Source: Obrimoposthia wandeli (taxonomy: Eukaryota). From it: a stretch of 64,000 bases of DNA. The DNA lies in NCBI GenBank assembly GCA_977020255.1, contig CDROCS010000852.1, forward strand, positions 310,001 to 374,000. Direction: 5' to 3'. Shown here one piece after another: positions 7,478 to 53,700 of this stretch; positions within the stretch are counted from its first letter, which is position 1, and every line of letters begins with the position of its first letter. The notes below the pieces were generated by a model that saw nothing but the letters and a program-made list of their open reading frames with translations, did not search any database and was not told where the DNA came from. Position numbers and translations under genes: made by a program.

Positions 7478-8391
7478 ATTATCATATAGTCTGAATAAAC
7501 CTTTAAGACGTAAATTCCCTACTAGATCATATAAAACTAATGGTATTAATTCGTTATGGCAGATGGATTTAATGGAAATGATTCCTTATTCTTCAGTAAA
7601 TAACGGATTCAAGTATATTTTAACTTGTATTGATGTATTTAGTCGTTTTGCAAGGGCAGTTGGTGTTAAATCAAAATCAGGTATTGATTTATTACATGCA
7701 ATAGAATCTTTAATTGTTGATGATGTACCAGTAAATATTCAAACCGATGAAGGTAAAGAATTTTTTAATTCACATGTTAAGAAATTATTTAAAACTGAAA
7801 ATATCAATCATTATTCAGTATATTCTCAATATAAAGCTGCAGTAGTTGAAAGATTTAATAGAACGTTAAGAGAACGGTTAAAGAAATATTTTACTAAACA
7901 AGGTAATAAGAAATGGGTGAATGTATTACCAAAAATTATTTATGCTTATAATAATTCTAAACATAGAGGTTTAGATGGTTTAAAACCTGTAGATGTAAAT
8001 AATAAAAATGAATTTGATATTTTGTTGAAACAAAATCTAAAAAGAAAAGAAAGTTAAATCTAAATATAAAATTGATGATTATGTTCGAATATCAAAAATA
8101 AGTACAAGTCCATTTATTAAAAATTTTAATCAAAATTGGAGTGATGAGGTTTTTCAAATTCATGATATTAATTATAAACAAAATCCAATAATGTATATTT
8201 TAAAAGATATTGATAACGTCATCATCAAAGGAAAATTTTATAAACAAGAGTTACAATTAATTGATAAACCTAAACTATATCGAATACAAGAAATTTTAGA
8301 AACTAAAGGTCGTGGTAAGAATAAACAATATTACGTAAAGTGGCACGGATACTCTGAACCTTCTTGGATATTTGCTTCTCAAATTGAATAA
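7365..8391 (+). CDS. Retroviral-type DDE integrase with C-terminal chromodomain; +1 frame break at 8041-8057
   Basis: WQMDL, IQTDEG and VERFNRT form the DDE triad. The +1 frame from 8053 reads VKSKYKIDDYVRISK...NWSDEVF...FYKQELQ...YRIQEIL...YYVKWHGY (chromodomain). Confidence 0.92.
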
Positions 8392-9404
8392 TGTCAAAAT
8401 ATATTATTTTACCTAGTAATAGTTGTCCAAGTACTCAACCTAACAATACAGCCAATCAATTTACTGTAGATTGGGAAAACTCTCTAAATTTAGATGGTGA
8501 ATGGGAGGTTGCCTTGACTGAATTTGTATTTAATTATACTCCTTTAACAATACAAACTAATTCAAAAATACTTTATAAAACGGAAAAGATAGAAATGAAA
8601 ACTTTCGATGTATCTTTTGCAATTTTAAATGGATTAATTTTTAATAATTTAAATACTGTTTTCAATTTCAAAATTACAAAGGATCAAAAATTAGAAATAA
8701 GTACAATTAACAGTATTCATCGAATGTTGTTAAAATTCGAAACTTTAGAAGAATCAAAAATTATAGGTTTTAATGAAATACAAAAAATTTCTAGTCATGT
8801 TATAACAAGTGATGAAATTGTTGACATAAATAAAAATATTCATGCTAAAATGAGAATTACAATTTATTATTTAGCTGAATATGAATACGAAATAAAATTT
8901 AATCAAAATTATTTGATACAAGATAGTTCTTCATTATGTAATATTATAGCCAGTAAATGTAATGAAATTTTTAAAAGCTGTAATATAGATTCAGACGGAT
9001 TATTTGATATTTTATTAAAGAAAAATGTAAAATCAGTTTTATTTGACGAAAAACTTGCATCTTTATTAGGTTTTAATAATGTTTTCTTTGAGAAACGAAT
9101 TAAAGGTTTTCAAAAACCAACACTTTCTAGCTCATATAATCAAATGTATATTTATACTAGTTTAACAGATTCTGTCTTAGTAGGATCTGATTATGTTCCA
9201 CTGTTAAAGTCTATTTGGTTAAAATCATTAAAATATCGATATGGAGATGTAGTAAATGTTAAAATTGATAATCCAATGTACTTGAAAATGAGAGATTCAA
9301 GTATTAATAGAATCGAGGTAAATATACGTGATGATTCTGGTAATTTAATTCCATTTTCATATGGAGCAAAAACTAGTTTAACTCTTCATTTACGTAAAGT
9401 ATAA
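8391..9404 (+). CDS. Minor capsid (penton-like) protein
   Basis: Polinton mCP pattern: N-terminal LPSNS...NTANQF...L.G.WEVALTE and C-terminal MYIYTSL...LVG...VPLLK...PMY...INRIEVNIRDDSG..IPF..G...LTLHLR. Confidence 0.8.
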   Translation: MSKYIILPSNSCPSTQPNNTANQFTVDWENSLNLDGEWEVALTEFVFNYTPLTIQTNSKILYKTEKIEMKTFDVSFAILNGLIFNNLNTVFNFKITKDQKLEISTINSIHRMLLKFETLEESKIIGFNEIQKISSHVITSDEIVDINKNIHAKMRITIYYLAEYEYEIKFNQNYLIQDSSSLCNIIASKCNEIFKSCNIDSDGLFDILLKKNVKSVLFDEKLASLLGFNNVFFEKRIKGFQKPTLSSSYNQMYIYTSLTDSVLVGSDYVPLLKSIWLKSLKYRYGDVVNVKIDNPMYLKMRDSSINRIEVNIRDDSGNLIPFSYGAKTSLTLHLRKV

Positions 9405-9441
9405 ACAATATAAATATATTTAAAATATAAATATATATAAA

Positions 9442-9845
9442 ATGAATACATCAATTATAAAATTTTATAGCAAAAGTCAACAGGGCGGTGAACTTCCCTA
9501 TTTCATTGGTAAACAATATGGATCTGGTTGGTATCAAACTATTTCTAGATTAGCTATTCCATTTATTAAAAAGTTGGTTTATCAGCAGCTACAAGTGCTG
9601 CCAATGTAATTGGTGAAACGGTAGGAACTGCGTTAACAAATCCAAAAAACATAATTTCATCTCTCAAAGAAAATACAATCAAAGAAGTCAAAACTTTGAT
9701 TCCAAAATTAAAAAATAATGCTGTTGAGAGTTTAAATAAAGTCGCAAATTGTGTTGAACAAAATGGAAAGGGTCTTAAACGTAAAAGAAATAATTTAAAT
9801 AGTATAAACAAACGTCTTAAAGGTACTATTTTCCAAAATGACTAG
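9442..9845 (+). pseudogene. Putative protease-cleaved membrane-lytic/core protein upstream of MCP; 1-nt frameshift at ~9570
   Basis: MNTSIIKFYSKSQQGGELPYFIGKQYGSGWYQTISRLAIPFIK, continuing in the -1 frame as KVGLSAATSAANVIGE...QNGKGLKRKR...IFQND. The break lies in an A5 run (A6 restores the frame). Confidence 0.65.
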
Positions 9846-11058
9846 TATAAAATCTGAATTGTGTATTTTCGATAGACCACTACCTCAAGTAGTGATTGAA
9901 AATTCAAGTTTTGAAGAAATATTTCCAATCAATTCAATTACTGGAAAAAATTTAAATGACATAGAATTTAATATTCATGCATCTGAAGAAGATTATCTGG
10001 ATTTGAATGATACTTTGTTAAATATTAAATTAAAAGTTGTAAATGAAGATGGTACTGATTTAATGAAAGATAGCGATGTAACTCCAGAGAATTACATGTT
10101 TCAAACTTTGTTTAGAGATGTTATTCTAACACTTAATAATGTAAAGGTTGAAGGAGGAAATGGAACGTATACTCATAAGGCTATATTCGATACTCTTTTG
10201 AATTTTAGTAGTGATACCAAGTATACTAACCTTGAATGTTCCGGGTATGATGATGATGCAGAAAATCGTAAACAATGGATTAGTGAATCTAAAATATTTT
10301 CATTGTGTAATTCAATTAGATTAGATTTCTTTGATCAACCAAAATATTTGATTCCAGGGATTAATGTTCATTTGAGATTTATGAGAAATCAGCATAATTT
10401 TTCGCTCTATTCAGAAACTTCAAAACCAATTATTCAAATTCTAGATGCTAGATTGTATGTTAGAAGAGTAAAAGTTGATTCTTCAGTAATGATTGGACAT
10501 CAGTTAGGTTTGCAAAGTCAGAATGCAGTTTACCCAATTAGAAAAACTCAGTTAGTAACATATTCAATTCCTCAGGGTTCTTTGGAACTTAATAAAGATC
10601 AAATATTCGGAGACTATCGTTTACCCAAGTTCATTTTGATTGCTTTCAAAGATACACCTCAGGGTGGTAAGGAATACAAAGTTAAATCTTCTACGTTCAA
10701 TACATTTAATGTTTCAACAATATCATTAGCTAGAAATACAGATTATCGAGAAACTTATAATCTAGATAATAACAATTTTTCATTAGCATATATGCAGTCA
10801 ATTATTCGAAATATGAATATTTTAGATAAAAACGTGAATAATGGTATCAGATTTTCTGATTTTAAATCAGGAAGTTCGATTTTCACTTTTCTATTAGCAC
10901 CAGATTTTGATATAAACACTACTCAAGTGCCTAAAACTGGTAATTTAAGACTTGAAATTAGATTTAATTCTCCTTTGACCGTTCCAACAAGTGTTTTGAT
11001 TTACGGAATATTTGATTCCGAAATTCAGATTACGAAAAATAAAACTGTGATTGTATGA
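9838..11058 (+). CDS. Major capsid protein (double jelly-roll, Polinton PY/hexon-like), intact 406 aa
   Basis: SELCIFD.P..QVVIE...EEIFPINS, IEF.I...E.DYLDLNDT, FFDQPKYLIPG, A.YPI, LPKFILIAF and GNLRLEIRF..PL motifs typical of Polinton MCP. Confidence 0.9.
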   Translation: MTSIKSELCIFDRPLPQVVIENSSFEEIFPINSITGKNLNDIEFNIHASEEDYLDLNDTLLNIKLKVVNEDGTDLMKDSDVTPENYMFQTLFRDVILTLNNVKVEGGNGTYTHKAIFDTLLNFSSDTKYTNLECSGYDDDAENRKQWISESKIFSLCNSIRLDFFDQPKYLIPGINVHLRFMRNQHNFSLYSETSKPIIQILDARLYVRRVKVDSSVMIGHQLGLQSQNAVYPIRKTQLVTYSIPQGSLELNKDQIFGDYRLPKFILIAFKDTPQGGKEYKVKSSTFNTFNVSTISLARNTDYRETYNLDNNNFSLAYMQSIIRNMNILDKNVNNGIRFSDFKSGSSIFTFLLAPDFDINTTQVPKTGNLRLEIRFNSPLTVPTSVLIYGIFDSEIQITKNKTVIV

Positions 11059-11431
11059 AGTAAGCTTATTGTATATTATATTCTTTATTTAAATTAGTAC
11101 TTTAGAAATTCATAAATCCGGAAAAATATTATTGAATAACAAATTTAATGGAGTATATTCATTGGATAAAATTCCATCATTAAAACCCGGAGGTTACATT
11201 ATCAATACTCATACTTCAAATCTACCAGGCGAACATTGGATAGCAATATTCGTTGACAGATTCGAGATTCGAGTGTTTGATCCTTTTGGATTCTATTATC
11301 CTGCAAAGTTGGTGTCTACACTTGAAAAAGAAAACATTCCAGTCTACTATAATCGAGTTAAATGTCAGAATCCATTAACTAAAAACTGCGGACCTCTGAG
11401 TCTTTTATGGTTGAAACTTCAACACAAATAA
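11055..11431 (+). CDS. Adenain-like cysteine protease with a predicted 38-nt intron (11060-11097)
   Basis: Spliced product MNTLEIHK...GVYSLDKIP...INTHTSNLPGEHW...FDPFG...CQ.....CG has the catalytic His, Asp and Cys. The ATG overlaps the MCP stop (ATGA). Confidence 0.85.
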
Positions 11432-11898
11432 TTTTAAGTATAAACAAATATATCATTATAGATTTTCATTTTATTTTTTCAAATGGCTTTTATATGAATG
11501 TTTTATTGATAATAATGGAGAATATATTCTTGTCTTGTTCATTTCATTACGTGTTTAAAAATCAAATACCATGGAGTAGTTTATCATTTACAGTTAAAAG
11601 AAAAAATCTATATTTGATAAATCATCATCATCAGTTATCCTGGTTTGAAGGTGAAAGCTCTGATATTCATATTGATGATGTTGAAACAATATTCTATGTT
11701 ATGGATTCTATTGATGGAAAGAAAATTAATTTAGTGAAACGAATGTTTCCAAATTTGAGAATTGTGAATTATAATAAAAGTTTCAAAAATTTAAAGAAAA
11801 TGCCAAAAAATATTCGATGTCCGTTTAGAAAACACGGAAAACATTGTGCTTATTTGAAATGTTTTTCTCTATGTATTGATTATGTAAATTGTATATAA
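11407..11898 (+). CDS. Accessory protein resembling a DEDD/Maelstrom-like nuclease-fold ORF seen in invertebrate Polintons
   Basis: IIIDFH...FK..IPWSSLS...KRKN.YL..HHHQLSWFEG...CPFRKHGKHCA pattern, recalled from Polinton accessory ORFs and not verified. Confidence 0.45.
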   Translation: MVETSTQIILSINKYIIIDFHFIFSNGFYMNVLLIIMENIFLSCSFHYVFKNQIPWSSLSFTVKRKNLYLINHHHQLSWFEGESSDIHIDDVETIFYVMDSIDGKKINLVKRMFPNLRIVNYNKSFKNLKKMPKNIRCPFRKHGKHCAYLKCFSLCIDYVNCI

Positions 11899-11951
11899 AT
11901 ATATTTATTAAGGATATTTTATTTTAATATATAATTTATGTTATTTAAATA

Positions 11952-12705
11952 AATTTTACCATAATTCTTTAGATGTGTAAGCCTGGAAAAACTTTGATCT
12001 TAATTTTCACATAGAATAGTATGTGTGTGATTACGTAATACATTCTTAACTGATAAGAGTGAACTTTAGTCTAAATTTTCACATAGAATAGTGTGTGTAT
12101 GATTACGTCATACATTCCTTAACTGATAAGAGTGAACTTTATCCTAAATTTTCATTATGGACTAGATCACAAAAAGAAGGGTGGAGACTAAGCCACTTGA
12201 CTCTTTGAATTAGTGGTTAGCCAAAAAGAAGGGTGGAGACTAGACCACAAAAAGAAGGGTGGAAACTAAGCCACTTGACTCTTTGAATTAGTGGTTAGCC
12301 AAAAAGAAGGTGGAGACTAGACCACAAAAAGAAGGGTGGAGACTAGATCACAAAAAGAAGGGTGGAGACTAGATCACAAAAAGAAGGGTGGAGACTAAGC
12401 CACTTGACCCTTTCATAGTGGTATATCACAAAAAGAAGGGTGGAGACTAAGCCACTTGACCCTTTCATAGTGGTATATCTCAAAAAGAAGGGTGGAGACT
12501 AAGCCACTTGACCCTTTCATAGTGGTATATCACAAAAAGAAGGGTGGAGACTAAGCCACTTGACCCTTTAATCTATGGACGACCATAGTGGTATATCAAA
12601 GAAGGATGGAGTCTAAGCCACTTGACCCCCCCTAAAGGGTGTCACACCATAAGGGTATATGTTGCCTCACCTCCGGTGGGGGGGGTCAAGTGGCTTCTAC
12701 CTACT
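11952..12705 (-). repeat. Right terminal inverted repeat of Polinton A
   Basis: Mirrors 998-1710. About six full and several truncated GGGTGGAGACTAAGCCACTTGAC units, plus an extra ~73-bp tandem duplication near 12000-12148. Confidence 0.95.
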
Positions 12706-14557: not shown

Positions 14558-17500
14558 CATTGGCTACCCAGTCGTGACTATGTGCTTTCAGTTGAAGAAC
14601 TACGTTTCGCACAAATTCCGCTTGGTGAGTGTCATTTCTGGTCGTACGCGAATTGTCACCGGTTTGTCAAGGTCCAAAGACACGATTGTATGGCCACAGG
14701 AAGTTGGGTGACCTTTATTTTACTATCCAAGTGACGCAGTTTGTTTTCGTGTCATTTTAACAATTTGACAAATCGATTTGCACACTAATTTGCTATATAA
14801 TAATGACATTTTAAAATTCCTTAAAAATAATATTAGTATTAATTATATCATTTTTAAAATTATGAATTTTTATTAACTCTTTGAATCCATTTAATATTGT
14901 TCAAATGCAAAGGTTACCTAGACTCTTTTTTAGAATATTTTTTTTTAAATAAATATATAGTTAGTAATAACTATGCTAATTACAATTTAAGGTCATTTGG
15001 TACAATGCAAAAGTTTGGGATAGCCAACTCAAAGTTTTTATTCAATATAATACGATATACCTGTCGCTACTCAACAGTGATAATCGTCAAAATTGTACAT
15101 CACATATAATAAATTAATAATAAAAGTATAAAACTGAATAAACTTTTGTTTAAAATATGTTATGAATAATATGTTTAGAAACAGATTTTAAAATCAATGA
15201 TTATACCTGAAATCAACGGTGATAATAACATAAATGCATACAGACACACACAAAGAAGGTGATGTAGCCTGTATTTTTTATTATGGAAAATATTCAATAT
15301 AACAGTGATACCTAAAATGAACGATGATAGAATTTTTCAAGAAATTAACGTTTCGTGAACTTAAAATGATGTTACTCTAATTATTTAACTTTCGTAAAAT
15401 AATCAATATTTTTAGGATAAACTTTTTTCTTAAAAGTAATAATGAAGCCGTATTTTATTTAATTCAAAGGAAATTTATATGAATATAATGCTAATTTCGA
15501 TAATAATGATGAAAATAATCCAGAATGTAGTGGTATTTATGACAAAATGTGAAAGACAAGATATACTTCAACTGTAAAATATTTTGCATAAGATACGTAA
15601 GATATGTAATTATTAGATTTTGGCACTTTGCAAATATTTGTTATATTACCTTTATCATATTTGTATCTTTATCGATCTACTTACTTTTTTTATCCGTACT
15701 GAGACTTAAAAAGCTGCCTGTTAAAAATTTTTAAAAATAACGCAATTTTATTTATGCAAAATGAATTTACATTGCTGCATAAAAGTCATTAAAATACTAA
15801 TGCTACAGATTTAAACAGCTTTGCTATTTCGTTTTTTGTTGTTGAAATATTTAATTACTTATACTTAATAGTAGTTTAAATTATATATATTTTTAAAGTA
15901 TGAAAACTAAATAAAGAAGAATTATGCGTTTTTTAATCATTTACAATGTCAATGTAGAAATTATAAAGCTTACTTTAAAGTAGAAATTATAATTGAAGTT
16001 TAGCACTATATCTAACAAAAATAGACTAATTTATTCTATTAACATTTTACATACTTGTTAAATATTTGTTAAATATTTGTCCCTCTTTTAGTTTTATATT
16101 TATACTTTAAAAAAATGTGTTAATTTTATATGAATTTCTATATGAACTAATTTTTGTGTTTGTTGAATTTAGAAAAAGGAAATTTATTTAGTAGAGTTGA
16201 AGTTATAACATAAATAATTCCTCAAATGTTGTAAAATTAATAAAAATTAATTTCGTCTGATACAGAGGAGGCCAACCTTTTCCATGACATGGGCTGCATT
16301 TGCATGTCTGAAGAACCACATCTAACCTCTATGATTTTCTTAAATAAATAATTCCTTAACATTTTAAAATAAAAATATTTAGTACTCCCAAAATACGGAG
16401 AACAGTTTTAGTGACTTATTTGTCCCTGGTGATTTAGTGACAACAGAGGGAGATCATTTGGTATACTTGATGCAACAACACGCAGATTGTTCTCCATTTT
16501 CATGTCCGTGATCCTCGTGCGTTGACAAGATTGAATCAAATACATTACAAATCCATTTTCCTGTATTTCCTGAATGAAACTATCAGTTTGGATATCAAAT
16601 TAAATTTCTAAATTCCAGACTTAGTTTTCTATATTTTGAGAGAAGTTATCTGCTGTATAATCCCGATCTGTATTGCAGCGGCGCCAGACTGAAGTAAGGC
16701 GGATCAACCAGTTCTACTACGAGCTGCTGGAGAAGGCTATTCCGGAAGAGCTGCGCCAGTACAGCTACGTGCCGGACAATGACCGAGCCTCTGTGCCGGA
16801 CTCTGTAGCAGAGAACTCGTCCTCTACTACCTCTTCATCGCAAGGCAACAAGCAGGAGGTAGCAGTTACTCATAGCAACAGCGGTGGTGGCAGTGTCAAC
16901 AAGACTGTGGTGCTCAAGAAGAAGGAGGTGCTGTCCGCAAATAGTAGTGCCCTCGTGGTGTCTTCTGGGCAATTACCTTCGCATCAGACCAATGGTCGAG
17001 TCAAGCATCAGAAACCGGTGAGAGACGATGATGATGTCATTTACTGACCCATTTAACAATAGTGTAAGTGAGTAAAATTATGTAAAATTTATTTTTTAAA
17101 TGCACGCAATACATTTTGGATTTACATAAATACATACATTTATGTTAGATCGAGATAAGTTTTGCACACAGTAAATGATATATCTGGAGTAGATATTGGC
17201 GCTCATGTATTATACATTTGTTAAACAAACGTAATAGACTGGAAGATCTATAATTCTTGTTTAATTAAACTGTTTTTCATAAGAAGCCAACAAGTAGATA
17301 CACGTGTCACTGATATCGCCAAGGTAATTAAATCATAACTAAATGATGATCAGACGCCAAAAGAGTGGTATTCCAACCTCAATCTATTATAATCAACCTG
17401 AAAATGTCAACACATAAATTTATGAAATCTTAGCAAAGCCATATTTAAACATGTATATATATGAATATTTTTAATAATGTATTTATACTTCTACAAATGA

Positions 17501-20500
17501 TTAACATTTTAAGTTTAATATTGTTCCTGACCATTATTTCTGAAAATTTGAATTTTTATGATTTCCACCAATGACTTTACTTGTAAGTAACTTAAAAACA
17601 CTTTTTTTAAAAGTTGTCACATGAGACAGAACTTTAAACTTTGGCTTCTTCTTTTACTTATTAATTGGTCTATAAGGTCAACTAGATTAAGGTAATTCAG
17701 ATAAATCTCAAACACATAAATGGCAGATATTGAAATAAAATTAATCAAAAAAACATTACTCAGCTAGAATATAATATACAATTTTATTAGCTTGTCAATT
17801 CCTTAATTATACATAATACCAGTGATAGAACCAAAAAATATTAGTACATTTATTTTATTGTCGTTTATATGCTTTAAATTATTTACATAATAGAAAGTCT
17901 TTTATTGAGTTTTTTGTGTGTTTCACTTATTTTGCTAATCCCAACTTTATTAAAACGTATTACTGAACTGTACAAAATGTAAAGTATAACATAGGATAAT
18001 TTAGTTTACTTTTTGATATTAAGCAACAAAAACGTATCGTTTACTTAAGATTAAAGGTGAAGTAATTTAAAACTTCATCATATATTCTTTTTCGTCTTAC
18101 GTAGAATTTGAATTATGTTATAAAAATATTTTCATATTTAGCAAATTCATTTTGTCTTTGGCAAATTGGCCTTAAATGTAATTTATTTGAAATTTCCCTA
18201 AGAATTAATATAATTTTTAATTTTTTACCAGTGTCTTATGTGACTTTCTAAATTTGGGAAACTAAATCTCGCTAAATTAGAGGTTTCAAATCGAAAAGTA
18301 ATGTTCAACGTAAAATAAAATACGTTCTTTTAAAATGATTCTTAAACTGAAGTTGTCAAATTCTACGGATAAAAATTAAATAGGAGTCGACAATAGGTTT
18401 ATAACTCTAAATAATCTTAATACAACATTTGAATCAAAGTCTATAGTACATTTATTTTGATGTTTTTATTTTGTGGAATTACCCTAACATTCTCCCTACG
18501 CAGAATCACCAACTGCCGGATGTAGTAATGGACAGCAGTAGCAACCACAGTCAGCAGCACCCAGTCAGTTCCCAATCACCTGTCATCCTCAGTCACAGCA
18601 TCCATGCATTTCTGAGTACCCTCCCATCATGTCCCTCCTCCGGTAGTGACCTCCAGCCCTCCACCGTGACCTCCAATGACCACCACAGTACCCAGTTACA
18701 TCCTACAATCAACTCGTCAGTGGTCACAGACCTCTCTGCGACCAATCACCTCCTTGAGGACCACCAACCAGGACCAAATAAAGTGCAGCATCAGCAGCAG
18801 AAATGCAAGCGCAAACCTGCTTCCACGCCGGTAATCAATGGCAACATCCACGAATCCTCAGATAAGCTCCACTGCGAGTCGACAAAGAACAGTCGCGACG
18901 ATGCCATATCTAAGTAAGACACTGTAAAGGGAAAATTTGCTGTTATAAGGAAATTTAGTTGAGAAATTCAATAAACTTTCTTGATAACATTTCTCAGGGG
19001 TGTCAAACTCATTTCAGCCGGTTCATTTTTCTTACACAAACATTCACTACAGCAAACCGAATTTAGTCTTTATATCGTTTTAAGTGAAATTACATAACAT
19101 TAATATAGTTACATTCACTATGAAGACATTATAATCAAGCTAATACATAATTATATGAAATATCCAAAAGTAATAATTAACCCTTGGGCATCTATTGAAG
19201 GTTGATTACTCGGTAAGCTCATTTTAACCTGAATAAATCAACAATTGAGAAACGTTTTAAAATAAAATTTCATATATACCTAATTTGAAATTTTCCTATC
19301 AGACAAAGTCGATAATTTCTTATAAAAGCAATAAAAATCGAATCTATATAAAACGTTTCCATATTAGTGTTATGTTACTTAGTAACTAGACGGATTTTTT
19401 TCTAAATTAAGTCTTGGCCTCTTTAAACTTTATCTTCTTTTATTTATTAATTGTTAGCGGTTAAAATAAATTAGATACATTATATATAGATATATAGATA
19501 CATTTTAGTTTCGTCAGTTAAAAGTAATAAAGTTTAAAATTTATATAATGTTAAATTTTATTAAATTGTTATTCATTAACTCATTTATTAATAATACAAG
19601 TGATATTACTAAATTTATTGTTATTTTCAAATTAACTATGTTAGAAGACCGAAAAACAGGCATAACTAGATTGAATAAAATAATCTGCATTCATTGTTGT
19701 GCTGAGGATATATATATATATATATATATCATTATTGAGCAATGCAAACCTATCACACATTCACTAGCATAAAGATTACCTAAAATCCGTAGGTCCATAA
19801 ATTACAGTTTACATGATCTATTACAGGAGGTAACTACTTATCTTATTCAGTGGGTTTTGATAATATTTAAAAGCTTTTCTAACTTTCTGAAAAGTATTTT
19901 CAAATAATGGAAATTTAGTTTGCCGAGTTCTTAAGATGTAGGCCTTGAAAATAATTTAATTAGATAAGAAAAACAATCTATACATTTCATATCGTTTGCA
20001 GTCAGGTAACTCCTTATGGTTATGAACATATAAAAGAGAAAATTTTATTGTTTACTTGACTATTCTAACTTTTCTTTAGAGTGTTGAGAAGATGAAGTTA
20101 TGGATGGTGTAGCTTTAATTCTTAGTATGGAGAAGTGCATCTTACAACATGGTTCGTAGCAGTCAATGTAAATGGAAAGTGTAAAAAACAAGTAAAGCTA
20201 CAGAAGATGTACGAGTTAAATTAATATTATAGATCATATTAAATTTCACTTAGAAGAACTACAGGATAAAAAAATTCTCAGCAGACACTTAGTGGATTTT
20301 CATTAGCATATTGTTATACCGTTAATAAATTGTTCTTTTCCCTTAGTTAGGTTTTTTATTTTCTACGTCAGCTAAAATATATTTAGTCAATGAAATGTTA
20401 GGGATTGCTACAAAACATGTTTAAACCGTTGTCTCAGGTTCGAAATCCAGCTACGCCGTCTGCGGTCTGAGCTGACACAGCAACGTAAGTCCGAATCGGA

Positions 20501-22724
20501 GCTGCGCAACCAGGTGCAGCAGAGCAGCAGTGCCGAAGCAGCGCTGCGCTCCGAGACGCGACAAGCCCGGGTAGAGGTACAAGCAATGCAGACACGACTC
20601 AGCAGTTTGACTGATCGGGCTGCCCGTGAAAAGCAGGCATGTCAGACAATGGAGCGGCGGCTTGCAGAAGAGAAGAATGCCCGACTGGGACTGACCGCTC
20701 GTCTGGAACAGGAGCGCCGACAAAGATTGGAGGACGGCGAGGAGAGACAGCGCGCCATACAGAGTGCTGTGGACGCTGCTGCCAGGTGATTAACATGGAA
20801 ATTATCCGAGGAATTTATAATGATTCAGAATAACTGTTACAACTTCAATTCTTAATAATTCATGAAATACTTTTATTTTGCATGCTTGCATTATCATAAA
20901 CTATTTATTAAAAATCAATAATAAAAATTAGTCTTATAAATAGCATTCAGGATATTAATCTTGCATTCACCAAGATTATCAAACAGCGTTTTGTTTCGCA
21001 GGTCTGCAGATTGCTGTGAATTGTGCCGGAAGCAGCGACGAGAGCTAGAGTCGGAGCTGGCTGCACTGAGGCGGGAGGTGCCGGCCACAGAGGAGCGAGT
21101 TACCACGCTGCTAGCCCAGACCGTAGAGCACGCTGCTCTGGCTCTCAGTGCTGGTGAAGTGCGTGAGCTAAGTGGCAGAATCTGTGCCCTCAAGGACGAG
21201 AACCTACACCTGACTGAGCAGTTGCGCGAGCTCAACAAGATGAAGCAAGAGCTGCTCACCTCATATCACAGCAGTCAGCTTGAGATCAAAGATCTGGACT
21301 GTGAGTGTTTCAGTGCCCACATTCTAGTTTAGGCTTCTAATCTCAAGCAAATTAACATACAATTAGAAAATGTCATTTTTAGTAAGGTTCGAAATGTTAT
21401 TTTAAATATTCTTAATATGATATGTTAGATTCATAATATGGGACGATATTTCTTTCAGTGTCCAGATTTAACATGTTTTGCTGGAGACAAATAAATGAAG
21501 GGTACAAATTAAAAGTCATGTACAGTCAGGATTTTTCGAAAAATGTCGCCAATGCATTATATTTCTTCTATTAAATATTGAAACCTTTTTTGCTGATTGA
21601 AATATATACTTTCAATATCCATTATCAAAATTGGACATTTTAAATCAAATCGGGCAGTTACTTGAATGATTCCATTAAATTGAATGTGTGATTAAAAGTT
21701 ATAGAAAAAGAAATGGAATGTATCAATCACAACAAGTTTCATGCAGTTGTTATTTATAATTTTTAATTTGTATGGCTTAAGAATATTTTTCACGAACTCA
21801 AAAAATCGTTCATTGTGTGCCTCATCAGCAAAAAAAGATAAAGCCGACTGCTCAAAAATGTGTGTGTTAATGGTAGCAACTTTAGGATAAGATATATAAT
21901 ATGATTGATCTGCATGGTCAAAACATGGATGATTCTTTCTACATCGAGTTTCTTCAAAGGATGCACCTGAAGTTTGTTCACCTCCCTCAGAGTATTGGAT
22001 GGAAGAATTCTGTCTGGATTCGGCCGTATGTTTTAGGATAAATTTATTATGTCGAGGTCACGAAACGTTGTTCACCCGGCACGTTTTCCGCCTGACTTTA
22101 ATCTAAAAGAGTTCTGCTATTTTTAAATTTCGAATCTTTGTGAATTCAGCAGAATTTCCTAGTCGAAAGTGAATTAAAAGTTTCCTTTTTGGTGTTTGAG
22201 TCTTGAATCGATTTTTTTCGTTAAAAGTGTAATAATTTGGCAATGTAATTTATAATCATGCTGTAAATAAATATGATTGTTATTTTGGAATTATGACTTA
22301 ATTGTAAATGATCGAAACTTTTCGAACAACCCAAATACAACATCTATTCTAATTCGTCACAATTGATATATTGCAAATAATTTCATATCTTGCCTCAACA
22401 TTTACTAATTTACCAGATATTCTAAAGCGGAAGAACTATCAGATAATGGAGCTGCAGAGCAGGCTAGAAGAACTGGGCCAGCAACAGCAGCTGTACATGA
22501 ACTCCGGCGGCTCTCCATATGCGGTGACGTCATCGGCCTCGACTCCGCCTCCTCAGTCATCAGCAGTGTCTACAATGCCCTCGTCGCCGTTCTACCATCA
22601 CACCAATGCTAGCGCGTCGTCAGTCGCCAACTCTGTGGTGTACTCTCATCAACAGCAGCAACAACAGCAACACAATGGCTCCCAGAGACTGTCCAGCAAT
22701 TCTCCCCTCTACATGCAGCACTGA
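14558..22724 (+). CDS. MACO1: Macoilin (TMEM57) orthologue, 3' six exons: 14558-14624, 16679-17017, 18504-18913, 20438-20785, 21002-21300, 22417-22724
   Basis: IGYPVVTMCFQLKNYVSHKFRL|RRQTEVRRINQFYYELLEKAIP matches macoilin IGYPVVTLGF..KSYVSYKMRLRKQKEVQKENEFY..LL..ALP. Coiled coil DAISK|FEIQLRRLRSEL. All junctions are GT-AG with consistent phases (0,0,2,2,1). The N-terminal exons were not found in the window. Confidence 0.92.
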
Positions 22725-27126: not shown

Positions 27127-27378
27127 ATGAAACTCGTAAATATAAAATATAAAGGAAGAATAGAATATAATATTTTGTACTTATCATTCAATGAATGGAA
27201 GCCAAGACAATATGGGAAAAGGTTTGATAATTTCACAGTTGTTATTTTTTCCTCAGGTTAATTTTTATTTTATTTTTCATATTGAATTCTTTTAGGATTG
27301 AAAAATTTTGATGATCCAGACATTGTTGATTTGATTTTAGAAAACATATCTTATTACATCTTGTTATCTTTTCTATAA
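27127..27378 (+). pseudogene. TBP-like gene of Polinton B (shortened or interrupted)
   Basis: MKLVNIKYKG...KPRQY...DNFTVVIFSSG aligns to family A MLTNINYKG...RPEQY...KDYTILIF. Downstream ILLGLKNFDD matches VILGLRNLD. A 39-nt GT-AG segment (27257-27295) lies between. Confidence 0.6.
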
Positions 27379-32320: not shown

Positions 32321-33740
32321 TATCTCTTCACCTTTCACGTTCCATTGTTAACATAAGTAGGTAGATGTGTACAGTTCCCGCCGTCCCCCCTAGCGAAAAC
32401 CGAAAAAAAATCCGCAAATTTCAAAAACATACTATAATACTTCTTTTTTCTAAGGTCAATGTGGAAAGTAGGTCAAATTTTGTTATAGTACACATGATTT
32501 TTGAGGGTTAAATTCATATTTATGTCACTTTATACTATAATACGTCTGTTATTAGGTGATTTTGGTCTAAATTTACATGTTTTTGTTTAAACACATCAAT
32601 TTGTATGCGTGCAAATTTAAAAACATACTATAACACGTATATTTTTCAAGATAATTATTAATGAAGGTCACATTTTGTTATAGTACGCATGATTTTGAGG
32701 GTTAAATTCATATTTATATCACTTTAGACTATAATATGTCTGTTTTTTAGGTGATTTTACTCTGAATGTATATGTTTTTTCTTAAACACATCAATTTGTA
32801 TGCGTGCAAATTTAAAAACATACGATAACACGTATATTTTTTCAAGATAATTATTAATGAAGGTCACATTTTGTTATAGTACACATGATTTTGAGGCTTA
32901 AATTCATAAGTAGATCATTATGTGTTGTATTACGTCTGTTTTACTCTAAATGTATATGTTTTTGTTTAAACACATCAATTTTTAACCACGCAAATTTAAA
33001 AACATGCTATAATACGACTATTTTGAAGATCATTATCAGATGTGTGTCTTTTAAATCACATCACCCTATCCCTCCATATTTCACACAAAGTGAGATGTAT
33101 TCTTATGTTAGAAACATTTTATTAATATCAAAAAGACAAATCAAAATATGTAATAATATAGACATAAATCAACAGATGAAGAATATAATAAAAATATGAT
33201 ACAAATACGACAAAAATATACAATAAATAATCATTCATTCATAATATACTCATCCGGATGAAGATAATGACCATATGCGACTGACCGATTCTTTTCAACC
33301 CATTTTCGCTTATCATCCGCACTACACAATGCTATTTTAGATAAATGCATAGTATATAGCTGATGATTAACGGACGTTATACGACTTTGTTGAACACGCT
33401 TACTTATACCTGTCTCATAAACAGCTAAGTAATTCTCGTGTTTTAAATTACTCTGTTTAAGATTAATTCTCTTTGCTCTCATATGTGATTCATCATTGAT
33501 AGTTTTTAGGCCATAACATTTTGGACGAAGAAATATACATTCCGTATAAGTACAAATATCCTTACTTTCATCCTTAAACTTTGCCCAGGCGTAAGTGTTT
33601 GCATAACTTCCGCTGCATGTCTCTTATACCAAGGCAAAACAACTGTCTTTACCAGCATTTCCAGCTTGGGAAGAAAATCAACAACACAGGTTTCACCAGT
33701 GAAAAGCGAGTAATCTTGAGTGTATCCTGTTGCAGCAATT

Positions 33741-34083
33741 ATATTACTAAAAATAGAAGGACAAATAACATGTTTAAAGGTTTTAACCCTTAAAGGTCAG
33801 ACCCTGGGGATTAACCTTCAAAGAACCATCTGCAAAGTTCAATGGGCGATCTTATAGTTAAGACCACATGTCAATACGATCTTTAGATTTAAAGATATTC
33901 AAGTTTGAAAATATATTACTAAAAATAGAAGAAAAAATAACATGTTTGAAGGTTTTAACCCTTAAAGGTCAGACCCTTAAAGACTCTGAGGATTAACCTT
34001 CAAAGAACCATCTGCAAAGTTCAATGGGCTATCCTATCGTTAAGTCTGCATGTCAATACGACCTTTAGATAAAAAGTTATTCA
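33741..34083. repeat. Two diverged ~172-bp direct repeats at the centre of the fold-back
   Basis: ATATTACTAAAAATAGAAG...AAAGAACCATCTGCAAAGTTCAATGGG...TGTCAATACGA starts at 33741 and again at 33913. Confidence 0.85.
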
Positions 34084-36841
34084 GGATATTTTTAAGAATC
34101 CTTTTATTGATATATTATATCGAACCACCAATCCTGGCGGCAATCCTGTTAATCTGATTCTGTTAGAAGAAGGAGAGAAATATCACTACGTTGCAGTTCC
34201 AAATCTTAATAGGCTTCTAAACTATTATAACAAAGAAGAAGGTTCTACACGAATTCGATGTATATGGTGTCATAAATGTCTTCATGGATTTAGACGGGCA
34301 ATAAGTTTTGAGAAGCATAAACCTCTTTGTATGATGAATATGGAACATAATACACTATACCAGATGCCGGAGGACAAATATATTCAATTCACAGATTTTT
34401 CAAAATCGATTTCTCCACCATTTGTTGTTTACGGGGATTTTGAATCAGTTCTCCCACCCCATGGTATTCATCATCAAATTCATCTCCCGATTGCAGCCGG
34501 TATGTTAATGTCTCCAATTGCTGCAACAGGATTACTCATGATTACTCCTTTTCAATGGTGAATATTGTGTTGTTGATTTTCTTTCCAAGCTGGAAATGCT
34601 AGTAAAGACAGTTGTTTTGCCTTGGTATAAGATACATGCTGCGGAAGTTATGCAAACACTTACATCTGGGCAAATAGCTAGTTTTAAATCGGCTACTAGT
34701 TGTTACCTCTGTAATAAGACATGCATTAAAAAGGTACGAGACCATGATCATATGATGGGTAAGTACCTTGGAGCTGCTCACAGTAAGTGCAATTTATCTA
34801 GACGAGTAAATCGTACTCTCCCAGTGGTGTTTCATAACCTGAGAGGGTATGATCTCCATCAGATTCTCAAACATGCGCTGAGCAACTTTTCTGACTGGAA
34901 TGTCTCTGTTATACCTCAATCAACAGAGAAATTCCAAGCAATGATAGTGCGTATTGGAGGAGTTTGTATTCGATTCATCGATTCATTGTAGTTTTTGAAT
35001 AGTAGTCTTGAAAAACTCATAGAAAACTTAGTTTCCATTCCATTGACACATTCTGTTTTTCAACCTCATCTTGTGAATGGTAAAGGGATATTTCCATATG
35101 ATATGGCGGTATCAGAGAGTGCTCTCCGATCAATAACAAGCCTTCCACCAAAATGGGATGAGAAGATCAAAAGTGAACAATATGAGTTGGTGGAGAAAGT
35201 CTGGCACGAGAGTGGGTGTGAATCTCTTTGGGACTATATGTTGGTATATCTCAAAATGGATGTATATCTACTTGCGGATGTGTTTACAACATTTCGAGAG
35301 AAGGCTATCGCCGATTATGGATTGGAACCACTCAATTTCTTCTCTATCCCAGGTTAGATATTATTATTATTATTTTTCATTATTTAATTTTACATAGGTT
35401 TAACATTTGCAAGCGCTTTCAAGTCATTACTGGGTACTGAGTCAAGCGCAGAAAAACCGAGGGTTCCAGGCGGATCTACTGTGGAATTGATTCAAGATCC
35501 TGAGATGCATCGACTGTTTGAAGAAGGTATTCGTGGAGGAATGACCTTTGTGAACGAACATAAGATTACTAACTCTGATGATGATACTATTTTGTATATT
35601 GATGTTAACAATCTTTTTGGATGGGCTATGTCCCAATTTTTACCGGTTGGAGATTTTATCTGGGTAACTGACCGATTGCAATTAGAAGTAATAATTCATG
35701 AGCTCTCATATAAGGATCTAAGCTGTAGTGATTATGCTAATTTAATGGAAGTAGATATAAGTATTCCGAATGAATTGCATGATAAACTTGACGATCTTCC
35801 CTTAGCTCCACGTAAGGATTGCCCGCCTGGAAGTCGTACTTCTAAATTACTTTTAACTCATTATCCAAAGAAGCATTACACTGTCCATTCTCGTTTGCTT
35901 CAAATGTATCTGAGGCTTGGGGCTAAAATAGATTTCTTGCATAGAGCAATTCGGTTTGCACAAACCAATGTTTTTGCAAAGTATATAGAAGACAATTCAA
36001 CAAAAAGGGCTGCTGCTACTAATGATTTTGAACGAGATTATTATAAGCTGAAAGTTAATTCGCTATTCGGAAAATTGATTGAGAATTTGAAAAGCGAATT
36101 AATTTAAGGATTTGTAATACGTCTCAAAAACTTGTTACTTATTGTAGTAAGGCACAATTTCAACGCACTATAGAAATAGATTCTGATCTAATAACTGTTT
36201 TACTGAATAAAGATGATTTGTTTGGATATAGTTATATGGGCCAGGCAGTACTAGATCTTAGCAAATTGCGAATGTATGAGCTCCAGTACGTGCAACTTGA
36301 GAAATATCGTCAGAAATTTAGTTGTGATATTAGAATTGTTGCTGGGGATACTAACAGTTTCTTCTTGAAATGTAGAAATGTGGATGTAGAAGCACAATTG
36401 CTACCAGCAATGGTTTCTGATGGATTATTAGATACATCTAAGTATCCTAAAAATCACCCTCTTTATTCAACAGCTAACACTGCGATAGGAAAGTTTAAGG
36501 ATGAAAGTAAGGGTATTTGTATTTATACGGAATGTATATTTCTTCGTCCAAAATGTTATAGCCTAAAAACTATCAATGATGAATCACATATGAGAGCAAA
36601 GGGAATTAATCTTAAACAGAGTAATTTAAAACACGAGAATTACTTAGCTGTTTATGAGACAGGTATAAGTAAGCGTGTTCAACAAAGTCGTATAACGTCC
36701 GTTAATCATCAGCTATATACTATGCATTTATCTAAAATAGCATTGTGTAGTGCGGATGATAAGCGAAAATGGGTTGAAAAGAATCGGTCAGTCGCATATG
36801 GTCATTATCTTCATCCGGATGAGTATATTATGAATGAATGA
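34080..36841 (+). pseudogene. pPolB of Polinton C with a predicted 45-nt intron (35353-35397), a nonsense codon (34989-34991) and frameshifts
   Basis: VYGDFES, CYLC..DHDH, FHNLRGYD, YLKMDV, GIRGG, YIDVNNLFG, KVNSLFGK, AGDTNS, GKFKDE and DDKR. Splicing gives FSIPG|LTFASAFK, matching family A FSIPGLSWASALK. Confidence 0.92.
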
Positions 36842-37536
36842 TTATTTATTGTATATTTTTGTCGTATTTGTATCATATTTTTATTATATTCTTCATCTGT
36901 TGGTTTATGTCTATATTATTACATATTTTGATTTGTCTTTTTGATATTAATAAAATGTTTCTAACATAAGAATACATCTCACTTTGTGTGAAATATGGAG
37001 GGATAGGGTGATGTGATTCAAAAGACACACATCTGATAATTATCTTGAAAAATATACGTGTTATAGTATGTTTTTAAATTTGCACGCATACAAATTGATG
37101 TGTTTAAGCAAAAAGATATACATTCAGAGTAAAATCACCTAAAAAACAGACATATTATAGTCTAAAGTGATATAAATATGAATTTAACCCTCAAAATCAT
37201 GTGTACTATAACAAAATGTGACCTTCATTAATAATTATCTTGAAAAATATACGTGTTATCGTATGTTTTTAAATTTGCACGCATACAAATTGATGTGTTT
37301 AAACAAAAACATGTAAATTTAGACCAAAATCACCTAATAACAGACGTATTATAGTATAAAGTGACATAAATATGAATTTAACCCTCAAAAATCATGTGTA
37401 CTATAACAAAATTTGACCTACTTTTCACATTGACCTTAGAAAAAAGAAGTATTATAGTATGTTTTTGAAATTTGCGTTTGTTTTTTTTTCGGTTTTCGCT
37501 AGGGGGGGTGGCCGGAACTGTACACATCTATCTACT

Positions 37537-40460
37537 TATGTTAACAATGGAACGTGAAAGGTGAAGAGATATAGGTGAAGGAATGTATGAACTCCCTGAA
37601 AGATATATCATGTCAGTGAACTTTTCATAACAAAGCTAACATCGTGAATTCTAACTAGAGTCCACCCACTACTTAATACTATAATTAGCAATTTTTTCAT
37701 CTTAATTTCTTCAAATTTCAGGTACAAAATTATCATTGAAAGCAGTTGGCTTATGTGAAATTACCCAGGTTTTAGACTCCTCATTGACATTTTTAAACTG
37801 TACTGTTGCGCAAAATTGAACCTTAGACTAACCTAATTTAGTCACTTCAGATTTTAAAAGACTTTCAATATTTGAATCTACACCAACGTTTAATAAACCT
37901 TTCTCTTAATGGCACCTTAACTATAGCGTATTTTTTATTTAGGTTTTCCCTAACTTTCTTTAGTGGGACTTAATAAGGAATTTGGCTTCGCCTCTTTCTT
38001 CTTACAGTCGCTGACAAACCTCCCCCTAATTGAATGGGAAGATAACTATTTATATTAAAAAATCCATTTGTTGATGGTGCTGCTGAAATTGATGCAATCG
38101 CGGCTCATGTAGAAGGTGCTTCTGAGGCAACTAATGGTGATGCCGCAGATGACGAGACTATAGCGCTTGTAGAGGCTGACTCCACTCGGTATCCTGTAGC
38201 TGATGTCGTTGAAGATGAAGCTGACATTAGTGAGAGTGTTAGGATTAGGTTTTGAGTAATTTTAAATAATTAATTGATTTTATATTAAAATAAAAATCCT
38301 TGGAAGCAAGGTTATATTTAAAATAAAATTCATATTAAAATTAAATTGTTAAAATTAAGAAGGGAATTAAAATATTTAGGACCACGAAGGTCATGTATAG
38401 TGTGTGAGTATTTAAGGGATTTTAATCTTTACCAAAAGGCCCGAAAAAAGAAGAAGTTATTTACGAAAAATAGAAATCAAATTAGGAAAGAAGATTAATT
38501 AAGAAATAAATCAAGGTAAGAAACATTAGCACTTAGCTAAATTAATTTTCTTCCTTACAGATAGCAGCGGAATTAATCCATTAGCCGTAAGTGGGAGCCA
38601 AGCAGCCATTAGACTGGGAACCGGACAGCCGACAATTACCCAGCCCAAAGTAGGTGCACTTAGTTAAAGTGCTAGTAAATTTACTTAGTTCCATTAAGGA
38701 AAGTCGCGGGGAAGATTACTCACTCGCCTGATATAAAAGAGAGAACATTAAATTGAAAAACGCACAAATCGGCTGGCTCAAAAAAGAAATTAAAGGAGAC
38801 CTTAAATTCAGAATTCATAAATTGTAAGACTCGTGATAAAATCCGAGCATTAACAAAAACCAATTCAGAAGTGCAGCAGCAGTATCAAAATTAAGTGATA
38901 AATTGGAAACTTGAGATACAAAATCGTCTGACTGAAAATTCGGAAAAAGAATATCTTGACAATCGAGAACAGACGAGGAAACAGATTCGACAAAAGTAAG
39001 TGAAGCGCGCAGCCGGAAAGGAACGCTCTAAAAACAGACGTGCAGGATCACAGACGCCAATTCAAACTGCCACCTAAAACGAAGCTAGGTCGGGGAGCGC
39101 AATTCGAGATACAGACGAAACCAAGGAAGGAACCCGCTGACCGAGCCTAGGTGATCGATCTCGGAGCGAGCCGTACGGAACCAAGGAAGGACATGAGGAC
39201 GAGCAGACCGATTCGGATAAGAGGTAGAAACGTGAACATAAATTGAAATTTTGTGAATTATAATCTGAATATTTTGATAAAGACTAAAGTGAACAGAAAC
39301 TGAAATTTTGTGAATTATAACCTGAATATTTTGATAAAGACTATAGAGAACGGAAACCGAAATTTATACCGTGAATAAACTCATTTCCTATTTTAGAGCA
39401 ACCTGCTCTCTAAAATCAATTCATATTTTAAAGCAACCAGCTTTCTAAAGTCAACCCCTATTTTTAGAGTAAAGACTCTAGTAACTAAACAACCCTAAAA
39501 TAAAATCGATACGTGGATCATCCCTACTTGTTAGAGAATTGTGCAACATAACTAGAATTGTGTAGTTGTTTTTAGAACGTATTTAACGTAAAGTTGTGTG
39601 TTTAGAAATAAAGATTTCCTACAGTAAACCGTGTTGTACCAAACCGAACCCTTACCAGCGAGTAGTTGTTAACTACTCTACAGACAACACCACACTAAGG
39701 GAACTTTGTAGTAACCACATACACAGCTCTTCACACATTTCACCACACCTAACCTTAGTAAACCTTCAGATACAAATTGAGATAGGCAAGCATAACACAA
39801 GTAGGCCACAAACATCTACAAGTCCTGCTTCTATAGAACTCACGTTGGGGCCCTCCGTCTGAGGATCTATATTAAAAACAGTTTCATATAGAAACCCCAA
39901 CAAGAGGATGATCGGGTAGCGGCTGTTGTGGAGGCCGAAGATGCATCTGCTAAAAGAAATATATTAAAAAAATAATTTATTTTAAAATTTTTACTTCTAA
40001 GGCGTGCAAACATCGATGTAGGAGGCATGGCTACCACAGTCGACGACGGTAACGCCTGTCTCAAGGAAATTCCTGATTAAAATAAAAAATATTAAATAAA
40101 TCCTATGTCATATTAATTAACAATTTAAAAAATGATAAGAAAAAAAACCTAATGAAGGCAATGAAACTGTAGCTTGTGGGAAGTCCTCTTCATTGACAGC
40201 ATCCATCCAGCTGTCGTCTGTTAACTCGACAAAATCAGATTACTCGATATCGTCCAGCCAGCTGTTGTCGCTCCACTGAGGCTGCTCCATCTAAAAATCT
40301 GACTGGGATATATTTCTACCCAGTCATTGTTCGAGAGTTGGGTTGCTGGCGCCAAGTCCTCAAAATCTTCTTGGGATATATTTTTATTATTAAGAAGTAA
40401 ATGAAGCATATAGACCAGCAGAAGTTGAATACCATTAGCAGGTAGAACCGTTAATTGTAA
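37537..40460 (-). pseudogene. N-terminal region of a Polinton pPolB, interrupted by a solo LTR
   Basis: Minus strand reads RRKRRSQI...KVQFCATVQFKNVNEESKTWVISHK...SGWTLVRIH...SGSSYIPSPISLHLSRSIVNI, aligning with family A SRKRK...KIQYIIRMRFEKNDGETKEWYASHR...GSGWKL...IKSPNSLTKSKAVINI. The upstream S/A/T-rich part and the 40460 limit are approximate. Confidence 0.75.
38237..39902 (+). mobile_element. Solo-LTR-like element (1666 bp) with 4-bp TSD AGAG
   Basis: TGTTAGG...CCCCAACA termini; AGAG at 38233-38236 and 39903-39906. Removing it rejoins the S/A/T-rich coding-like sequence. Confidence 0.8.
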
Positions 40461-50700: not shown

Positions 50701-53700
50701 ACGAAGTTACGTAAAAACCTGTATTTCCAATACCAAATATTGCTTAAATTGTGGATAGCCTCAGATGTGCTAGATATTTTTAAACTATTGACCTCGGAAA
50801 TGCATACTATCAAGTTAAATTGGAGGAATGCTCACAACCTAAAACAGCTTTTTCAACTAAACATAAACTATACTGTTTTACTAGAATGCTTTTCGGAATC
50901 GCAGCAGCTCCAGCTACCTTTCAACGGTTGATGAATACGGTTCTCAGAAATATTAATTGGAAAACTGCGATTGTATATTTTAGTTTATTCAAAGACATTA
51001 TCAGATCATTACGAAAACATAGAGGCAGTGTTTTCAAGAATACATGAAGCCGGTCTTAAGATAAGCACTTAAAATGTGTGTTTTTCCTAAAATGCAAGTT
51101 AAATTTCTAGGTCATACATTAGACGAACGTGGTTTAAGAACAAATCCCAAAAAGATTGATGTTATTTTAAATTTTAGTAGGCCTAAGTGTATTAGAAAGT
51201 TTAGAAGTTTTTTGGGTCCATTGAATTATAAGCAAAAGTTTATAAACAGTTATACAAAATACTTGAAGGTATTATAAAATTTATATACTAATATAAATAA
51301 GAAGCTTATTTGGACAAGTGATTGTGAAGATGCATTTGTGGAATTAAATACAAAATTATGTGAAGCTCCTGTGTTGGCGTTTCCAGATTATACAAAGCTA
51401 TTTAGCCTGGATACATATACAAGTTTTGATCGAATAGGAGCTGTATTGTTACAATTAGAAGATAATAATAAATAAAGAGTAATTGCTTATGGATCTCATG
51501 TTATGTCTCCAAATGAGATCGTCCTTGTATTACAAGGAAGGAATTACTGACAGTTTACATTTTTACTAATAATCTTAAGCTCAAAGATTTACGTTTAGAA
51601 CAGATCTTCCGGCAATAACATTTATGATTAAAATCCAGAAGTCAATAACAGCACAATTCCAGACGTGGATAAATTATTTAAGTAGTCTAGATATAGAATT
51701 TCAATATCAGAAAGGAGATATCTACATAAATACTGATTCATTATAAAAGAATGAATGTTGACCATGCGTACAATGTCAGTCAATTAATACAGAACCAAAG
51801 TTATCTAGTTTGAAAACAAGAATAATGGCTTTAATAGCAGAAAATGGAGGTGAACAAAGGCAACAATATAGTGACGAAATTATTTAAATAAAGAATAGAA
51901 TCAGTGAAGGATTAGATGATTTTGAGACTGAATATGGAATAGTAAAGACAAAAGAAGGGAAATTATGGATACCAGAAAACAGTAAAATTCAATTTATTTC
52001 AAAATACGACAAAAATTTATTAATTAATAGAAAGTCATATTTTCAATTTGCAACAAATGTGATTAAATTATTTACAATTTTATCTCAAACACCCAAACAA
52101 ATGTATATAAATATATTAAATTGTAAAAAAAAATCATTCAATTTTTAACTGAAAACTTTATCATAAAAATATTTTTACAATGCTGCGGTCGACCATAATC
52201 AAAATCTGTTTATTAAAAATTTTAAGATTTTAAATGATAACAAAACATTTTTGTTTCAATTACAGAGCTTTCTATAAAGCACTCACCAGAAGAATTTGCA
52301 CTCGCAATTCTCCTCGACGATCATCTCATATGTGTGGTGACCTTGATTGCAGCACAAGGACGAACAGGAATCATGTTCCAGAGACGTGAAGTTGCACTCG
52401 CGACCACCGGTTCCCGGGTGACCTAAATGCGAGTTTAGAGTAAAAGAAAAAGCAAAAATAACATTTATCTGCATGTATGCAAACTGTATTTTGTGAATTA
52501 CTTTCAATGAATTTGCGACAGTTATTTTTAATCATTCTGTAAATAAAATGGACATATTGCTGAAGAATGAAGATTTGAAATTTACTTGGACTAAAAGCAA
52601 TGTTCTTACCGATTGCACTATCGGGACTGCAGAAGTCGGGAGACCGATCCAAGAAAACCATACGACGGCGCGAGGGTCGTCTGTAGTGGTTGCGCTCTAG
52701 CACAAGACCATTCTGTTGCCGGTTGAAGATAACCAGTTGCGATCGACGATAGAGTCGCTTCAGTGTCTCGCCGATATTCCGGAAATCGGTGAGACGTTGC
52801 CAGCAAGTTCGCAGAGAGCAGGCTCCGCTCACACCGTGGCACTTGCACTTTTTCAAGCGCGTCTTCCACACCACCTACAGCAGCGGTGGCAGACTCAACA
52901 CTCAAGATGTACAGTTATTTGAATCACTGATTATCTCTCATTTGCATAATTCTCCAACATGAATAAACTTTACCTAAAAGCCTAGAAGATTAAAATGTAC
53001 TGTTCTATTAAACACAAGTATATTTAAACCCAAATTAAGTCACTAATACAGCACAACATAAAATGTTTCCCTTTAATGAAGAGATTTTTTACGGATGATA
53101 CAAAAACAAGTTAAAATAATGATTTAATGTATCAAAATGGATCTTTAATGTACATATATTTATTTTACTAAGCTTTTCTGTAATAATTCTTCATAATTTA
53201 TCAAATCAAACTTGCTTGACATTATATTGTATCTGGAATTTCATATCACGGATTAATGAGGTAGCCCATGATCCCAGACCACGAATTATTCTACTCTGTC
53301 GACAAAACGATGCCTCAGTCATATGGTTCGTCAAAATTGAACTTAAACACTATTTAATTTTAGGTATGGTATATGGTCTCAAATATACTTGATCCATTGC
53401 TGCCCTTGCTTCAGTTGTGGAATTGTCATTCACATAGGCATAGCCAAAAGTAACCTTGTTCTTGTGACCAAATATCTGCATACTCTCATCAACAGGACAT
53501 TTTCATGCTGCTGGAATCTATCGTAAAGAACCACTTCAGTAACATCAGTTTCCAGATCTCCAACATATAGACTCGCACAAGTAACAAAACTGACAATATA
53601 CTCTTTATTATCACTTTATCAACAATACTCAAAACAATTTTCCAATTCAACTATCATCACATAAAATCATATCACGACTGAACGAACAATAAAATGTCTG

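Follow-up and report, generated by a model that had tools for sequence, protein, structure and literature searches.

Polinton elements at the locus

The window (the whole stretch of DNA analysed, 64,000 nucleotides) contains a near-complete Polinton element (A), decayed pieces of two others (B and D), and one copy of a further family (C) whose polymerase gene carries a short AT-rich insert (Table 1). Macoilin and Wnt genes are also found in the window, and therefore the host is an animal. Polinton A has an rve integrase, an A32-like ATPase and a weak match to Peptidase_C5, while its capsid genes gave no Pfam match. This set of integrase, packaging ATPase, adenovirus-type protease and capsid-like genes is like that of Polinton/Maverick elements, and the polymerases are also alike in being protein-primed family B enzymes (PF03175), as in the pPolB of vertebrate and nematode Polintons/Mavericks (eupolintoviruses, adintoviruses). 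The polymerase of A is broken near 4700 and at 3115, and a further gene is broken near 9570. We considered the break near 4700 as a possible intron and rejected it, as it is a local duplication/deletion instead. Polinton A also has a TBP-like gene (PF00352, E 3.5e-12), with weak matches in four loci. A 39-nt AT-rich GT..AG stretch with a T at donor position +3 lies in the TBP-like gene of element B, and its borders fit the family A protein poorly.

Copy C sits between two parts of the element B polymerase gene and is a nested, rearranged remnant, holding only polymerase sequence between its inverted arms. The inverted arm includes about 35 bases of flank (32321-37571). The polymerase is 45-59% identical to full-length homologues. 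Downstream of the insert there are about 14 extra codons, open and GC-rich, which belong to the family C polymerase and correspond to a loop of variable length among homologues. A 36-nt GT..AG stretch at 35434-35469 was tried as a second intron; it is open and GC-rich, fails to account for the 14-codon excess, and was taken as coding.

Table 1. Coordinates of the insert, of the copy that carries it, and of the features compared with it (window positions unless a locus is named).
Feature	Position (strand)	Remarks
Insert	35353-35397 (+)	45 nt, GT..AG, AT-rich, phase 1, in-frame stop; probable spliceosomal intron
AGGTT, left copy	35351-35355 (+)	overlaps donor CAG|GTTAGA
AGGTT, right copy	35396-35400 (+)	overlaps acceptor (T-rich tract, TAG|G)
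Polinton family C copy	32356-37536 (.)	rearranged 5.2-kb remnant; left arm is an inverted copy of the right arm; polymerase sequence only
pPolB N-terminal pieces	34073-34991 (+)	broken near 34550; no intron at the second-intron site of L004/L019/L025
pPolB coding stretch 5' of insert	34992-35352 (+)	preceded by stop 34989-34991
pPolB coding stretch 3' of insert	35398-36107 (+)	Pfam PF03175, E 2.6e-13
Extra codons of family C polymerase	35430-35480 (+)	
pPolB C-terminal piece	36083-36841 (+)	different frame from about 36090
Polinton A	1005-12655	near-complete
Polinton A TBP-like gene	5436-5960 (+)	
Polinton A protease intron	11060-11097 (+)	38 nt, AT-rich GT-AG, after the first five coding bases
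Protease intron comparison sites	window 11055-11100 (+); L007 4455, L034 5000, L046 5632 (-)	
39-nt stretch in element B TBP-like gene	27257-27295 (+)	
Two shared polymerase introns	L004 718, 1133; L019 153, 571; L025 735, 1153	
Introns of a more distant lineage	L042 435, 931, 1219; L047 152, 648, 1013	56-65 nt
Candidate introns near polymerase start	window 5466-5518 (-); L004 180, 249; L007 30, 329; L009 80-470; L025 265	
Macoilin and Wnt exons of the host	16661-22724 (+), 52286-52906 (-), 62943-63140 (-)	

Anatomy of the insert

Reading of the sequence confirmed a 45-nt GT..AG insert with AGGTT at both ends, as the initial annotation had claimed, and this direct repeat does not extend further on either the left or the right side. 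The insert has a GC content of 5/45 (11%), compared with about 37% in the surrounding coding DNA, contains an (ATT)n run, and follows the first base of the glycine codon of a Pro-Gly within a conserved motif. The open frames that flank it (34992-35357 and 35388-36107) are one and the same frame; it had also been claimed, correctly, that retention leads to an immediate TAG (35355-35357), at which unspliced reading halts, and that removal joins the flanking frames. The homologous polymerases place the insert exactly. From 311 spanning tblastn alignments, 196 have a gap of exactly 15 residues that starts at 35352-35358 and only 5 have no gap at the insert; among the other alignments listed, most fuse this gap with the 14-codon extra stretch directly downstream.

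An AT-rich GT..AG pattern is common by itself, with 27 matches in the 35.7 kb of the window that is not element DNA. In element C (~5.2 kb) the insert is the single match. The donor agrees with the U1 consensus in 7 of 9 positions, compared with 4-7 for the ten other short introns, and it reaches this score despite a T at +3 because the preceding CAG and the A at +4 and G at +5 offset the T. There is a branch-like TTAAT whose A is only 11 nt from the end of the insert, a motif that is frequent in such AT-rich DNA. The few host introns that we read in the window are about 190 nt or longer, compared with the 45 nt of the insert.

The initial annotation had presented the insert as an intron in a Polinton polymerase. 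This is supported by the codon-exact placement and by introns of the same class in relatives (see below), although the splicing itself is inferred, and we consider it very probable that the insert is a true spliceosomal intron. If so, transcription of the family C element would take place in the host nucleus and the 45 bases would be excised by the spliceosome of the host, while unspliced RNA would halt before the polymerase domain.

Short introns in related elements

We examined 58 loci from relatives, 57 from a metagenome scan and one (L058) from a genome scan. The insert site is open in all 48 loci that cover it; the other 10 of the 58 lie outside coverage. The search of genome_contigs gave L058 as its single locus, which is short and does not cover the insert site, and three protein queries gave no relative in viral_contigs.

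In three of the loci (L004, L019 and L025), two other polymerase sites, common to all three, are occupied by phase-1 GT-AG introns that are 43-45 nt long and have 11-16% GC. The length is not a multiple of three in five of these six introns, and the genes are otherwise open. The two introns are present in 3/17 and 3/13 covering loci, respectively, and absent from the relatives L005, L007, L009 and L034, and the positions are common to elements that are about 60% alike. This patchy distribution reflects either paired losses or parallel gains. A flag at the second site in L011 was a GC-rich coding insertion, which leaves the count at 3/13, and most candidates of the automatic intron screen were likewise dropped, being coding insertions rich in GC or giving a spliced reading with no higher score than the unspliced one. 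A more distant lineage (L042, L047) has introns of GTRAG type at no fewer than five polymerase sites.

The protease gene presented a second group. Introns of 37, 39 and 41 nt were found in L007, L034 and L046 at the same position as the 38-nt intron of Polinton A, that is, in four of four close elements. Removal of each of them puts the only available ATG in frame, and the family A protease frame has no other Met. Their lengths differ and the resulting frame is the same, and therefore this is strong evidence of splicing in the clade. Protease starts without the intron were found in three distant loci (L037, L040, L044). Family A had been described as intron-less and this does not hold, given its protease intron; it lacks an intron only at the insert site. 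Introns of 37-45 nt and 10-22% GC in core genes are a class found across this Polinton clade, and the insert would belong to it.

Candidate short introns were also seen near the start of the polymerase (Table 1). As a pattern only, they suggest that the polymerase may have a spliced mini-exon leader. In family A, the donor of the leader candidate and the start of the divergent TBP-like gene overlap.

Route of gain

The best match of the upstream polymerase piece among 1.84 billion representatives was the protein P0242, from a 4-kb contig. This protein departs from the motif right after the same Pro-Gly, continues with K-Y-I-I-N-K-Q, a tail of AT-rich codons, and stops; its ending resembles unspliced readings of other introns of the clade. 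This hints at a second intron at the insert site in the P0242 element. By a strict pattern, 335 of the 365 proteins that reach the site read through it, and only P0242 among the other 30 has an intron-like tail. Because the protein set is biased to unbroken frames, we took the count for the site from the DNA loci. Two others were rejected as further cases: P0244 ends exactly at the Pro-Gly, probably because its contig ends there, given that P0189, a near-identical neighbour, continues past the site; and in the P0121 cluster the stop lies a few residues before the Pro-Gly, which is incompatible with a GT donor. In the trees, of which the first was a quick one, family C was unplaced, and its grouping with P0242 gave a p-AU of 0.51, by which the two are neither joined nor separated.

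Any GT-AG intron set in AG|GT repeats AGGT, four of the five bases, and because of this the AGGTT repeat exceeds expectation by one base. That base, the T at +3, is found in none of the 15 other donors of the clade and is identical to the third exon base after the insert. It is explained by a short target duplication and unexplained by the splice consensus, which favours the duplication. The same T had been put forward as a caveat against the intron. It is indeed at odds with the other donors, but the direction of the argument is the opposite, in that it supports a target duplication. One of the 15 other clade introns, which are not independent of each other, is flanked by a repeat of 5 bp, and in five the repeat is 3 bp long. 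Repeats of at least 5 bp flank 26% of conserved Drosophila introns, according to the accessible text of PMC3443670. AT-rich neointrons of Daphnia with 4-12 bp repeats are ascribed to staggered-break repair in the part of PMC4202315 available to us, and therefore a target duplication need not mean a transposon. There is no sign that the inserted piece was one.

The best overall explanation, and one that we hold with fair confidence, is that the insert is a short spliceosomal intron of family C gained by a repair-type event. A small AT-rich insertion at an AG|GT protosplice site, made during repair of a staggered break, would have duplicated about 5 bp of target.

The alternative that fares best differs from this explanation in the route of gain alone. 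The intron might be old, going back to a common ancestor of family C and the P0242 element, or it might be a parallel gain at a protosplice site that is favoured, with the fifth base of the repeat as a coincidence. The tail of P0242 fits a phase-1 intron in the same codon. Family C has no close relative (its closest identity is 58-59%), so that the gain can be old, and the conservation of the two other polymerase sites among elements about 60% alike is in line with long-lived positions. In Daphnia, introns have often been gained in parallel at a single site, as reported in the accessible portion of PMC4202315. Against this, the open site in all 48 covering loci means that many losses would be required under inheritance, except if C and P0242 were sisters, and the T at +3 is unexpected for an old intron of the clade. 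We regard the old or parallel intron as the less likely route, although a serious one; given a real intron, a repair-type gain is somewhat more likely.

Presence of the insert in family C

Contigs of four public runs (one sample, one study) were aligned to 34300-36480. Family C matched 6,906-8,999 contigs per run and is highly repeated, and the depth gives no copy number. The stop of copy C at 34989-34991 is absent from >99.7% of the contig depth, and 28 of the 40 differences listed (there are 88 further ones) are carried by at least 95% of the depth in run X1, meaning that these states of copy C are private or rare. The window copy is a decayed member of a highly repeated family. The initial annotation had called this copy dead, which is right for copy C, with its stop and frame breaks, but does not extend to the family, as most of the depth is without the stop.

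The alignment masked 35353-35386, which removed 3 joints, 3 gaps and 40 loose ends in that interval; these loose ends are mostly false by the tool's own account and were left unused. Depth in the bin of the insert, which includes the masked letters, was 0.59-0.71 of that in neighbouring bins, a value that the masking makes uninterpretable. The alignments of two contigs with 85-86% likeness to the window reach 35387, a position at the border of the mask and still within the insert by 11 bases. At the border of the insert that falls outside the mask (35396-35398) there is none of the 24 loose ends that were listed out of about 1,500, and no listed joint marks the borders of the insert; lesions of copy C near 34533 and 36230 do appear among these 24. 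The junction is masked, but the contigs lean to a shared insert, and we think it likely that the insert is present family-wide.

Alternatively, the insert could be private to copy C, having entered a dead copy after integration and never been spliced. Copy C is decayed and rearranged, with the duplication of its inverted arm and the many private or rare states noted above, and the (ATT)n run could belong to such a late event. None of the relatives known as DNA has an insert at the site, and with the junction masked an insert-free majority is compatible with the contig data. However, a chance piece would have to land on AGGT, match the length and composition of the clade introns, and also provide the A at +4, the G at +5 and a T-rich acceptor. 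The diverged contigs extend into the insert, and the tail of P0242 points to a possible intron there as well. A private insertion is consequently, in our judgement, unlikely.

Relation to introners

The insert had been proposed as an introner-like gain, and this was not borne out: it has no inverted ends, a second copy was found neither in the window nor in viral_contigs, and the AGGT repeat is expected at AG|GT. Under that proposal it would be a mobile introner copy, non-autonomous and 40 nt long, with both splice sites supplied by a 5-bp target duplication. The likeness to introners is real in several respects. As in the accessible text of Gozashti et al. 2022 (PMC9860276) and of PMC11957031/PMC12166617, we have a short insertion into an exon, both splice sites in a direct repeat, and a Polinton host element; introners are known in dinoflagellate Polinton-like elements (PMC11957031, accessible part). 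The AGGTT repeat with its rare T at +3 is in keeping with this. Inverted repeats are missing from about half of introner families, introners can be as short as 30 nt, and some of them draw both splice sites from the target, as far as the available text of PMC9860276 describes them. There is also a 15-mer identity between window 35376-35390 and L019 177-191, near the 3' ends of introns at different sites; it was reached in 2/1000 shuffles, about 0.04 after allowing for 21 pairs, and is marginal.

Introners are, however, defined by families of introns alike up to both ends (PMC9860276, in the portion available), and the insert differs from them in this. No second copy was found in the window or in viral_contigs, the latter having no exact copy, and four or more alike introns at non-paralogous sites were found neither in these two sets nor among six introns of relatives. 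The insert has little global likeness to the six other short introns of polymerase genes (p 0.025-0.6). No terminal inverted repeats were detected at the ends of the insert, which match in at most 7/12 positions, and its hairpin is not significant (fold z -0.97). The GC content of 11% is below the 20.9-83.3% of the introner families given in the accessible text of PMC9860276. A duplicated base beyond the splice consensus is represented here by the T at +3 at one locus, where the published test, as the available text presents it, needs many. We find a mobile introner copy improbable.

The dinoflagellate insertions are mostly post-integration, according to the accessible parts of PMC11957031 and PMC12166617. 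The introns of the present clade differ in being at conserved positions across elements, and therefore travel with the element.

Comparison with other Polintons and neointrons

The staggered-break introns of Daphnia are the closest parallel to the gain that we favour. They are alike in being AT-rich and of unique sequence, with a direct repeat of 4-12 bp and internal short repeats (PMC4202315 and PMC3443670, in the accessible text). The Daphnia neointrons are shown by presence and absence in populations, whereas the insert here is read from sequence, and such repeats also flank old introns.

The core genes of vertebrate and nematode Polintons are described as intronless, with introns in cargo only, while here core genes have short GT-AG introns. 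Intact vertebrate Mavericks are given as without introns in the accessible text of PMC8097293, which is said to agree with Kapitonov and Jurka 2006, and for nematodes the available portion of bioRxiv 2022.07.12.499685 reports intronless core genes and introns only in cargo. Group I introns have been reported in protist Polinton-like viruses (PMC12220804, accessible part). In the literature that we searched there was no account of conserved spliceosomal introns in animal Polinton core genes; subscription papers, Repbase reports and supplements may hold one.

Very short host-type introns in the core genes of a Polinton clade are unusual, set against the intron-free description. Where 'intact' elements are chosen by their open frames, a clade with polymerase and protease introns of 37-45 nt would score as broken and be missed. 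The conserved introns imply nuclear expression of the elements, by way of the host spliceosome. Taken alone, the insert is a modest case, and the clade-wide pattern is more useful: polymerase introns that are patchy among close relatives offer a compact, high-copy system in which to follow intron gain and loss.

It is quite improbable, though it would be of consequence, that the clade generates tiny introns of its own and exchanges them, with short AT-rich pieces entering core genes at staggered cuts, possibly made by the element integrase, one piece (the 15-mer common to the insert and the L019 intron) having moved between sites and elements, and Polintons being a source and shuttle of new spliceosomal introns in animals. 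The repeat can also be read as one of 6 bp, CAGGTT/TAGGTT with one transition, in agreement with the 6 bp of target that Mavericks are reported to duplicate.
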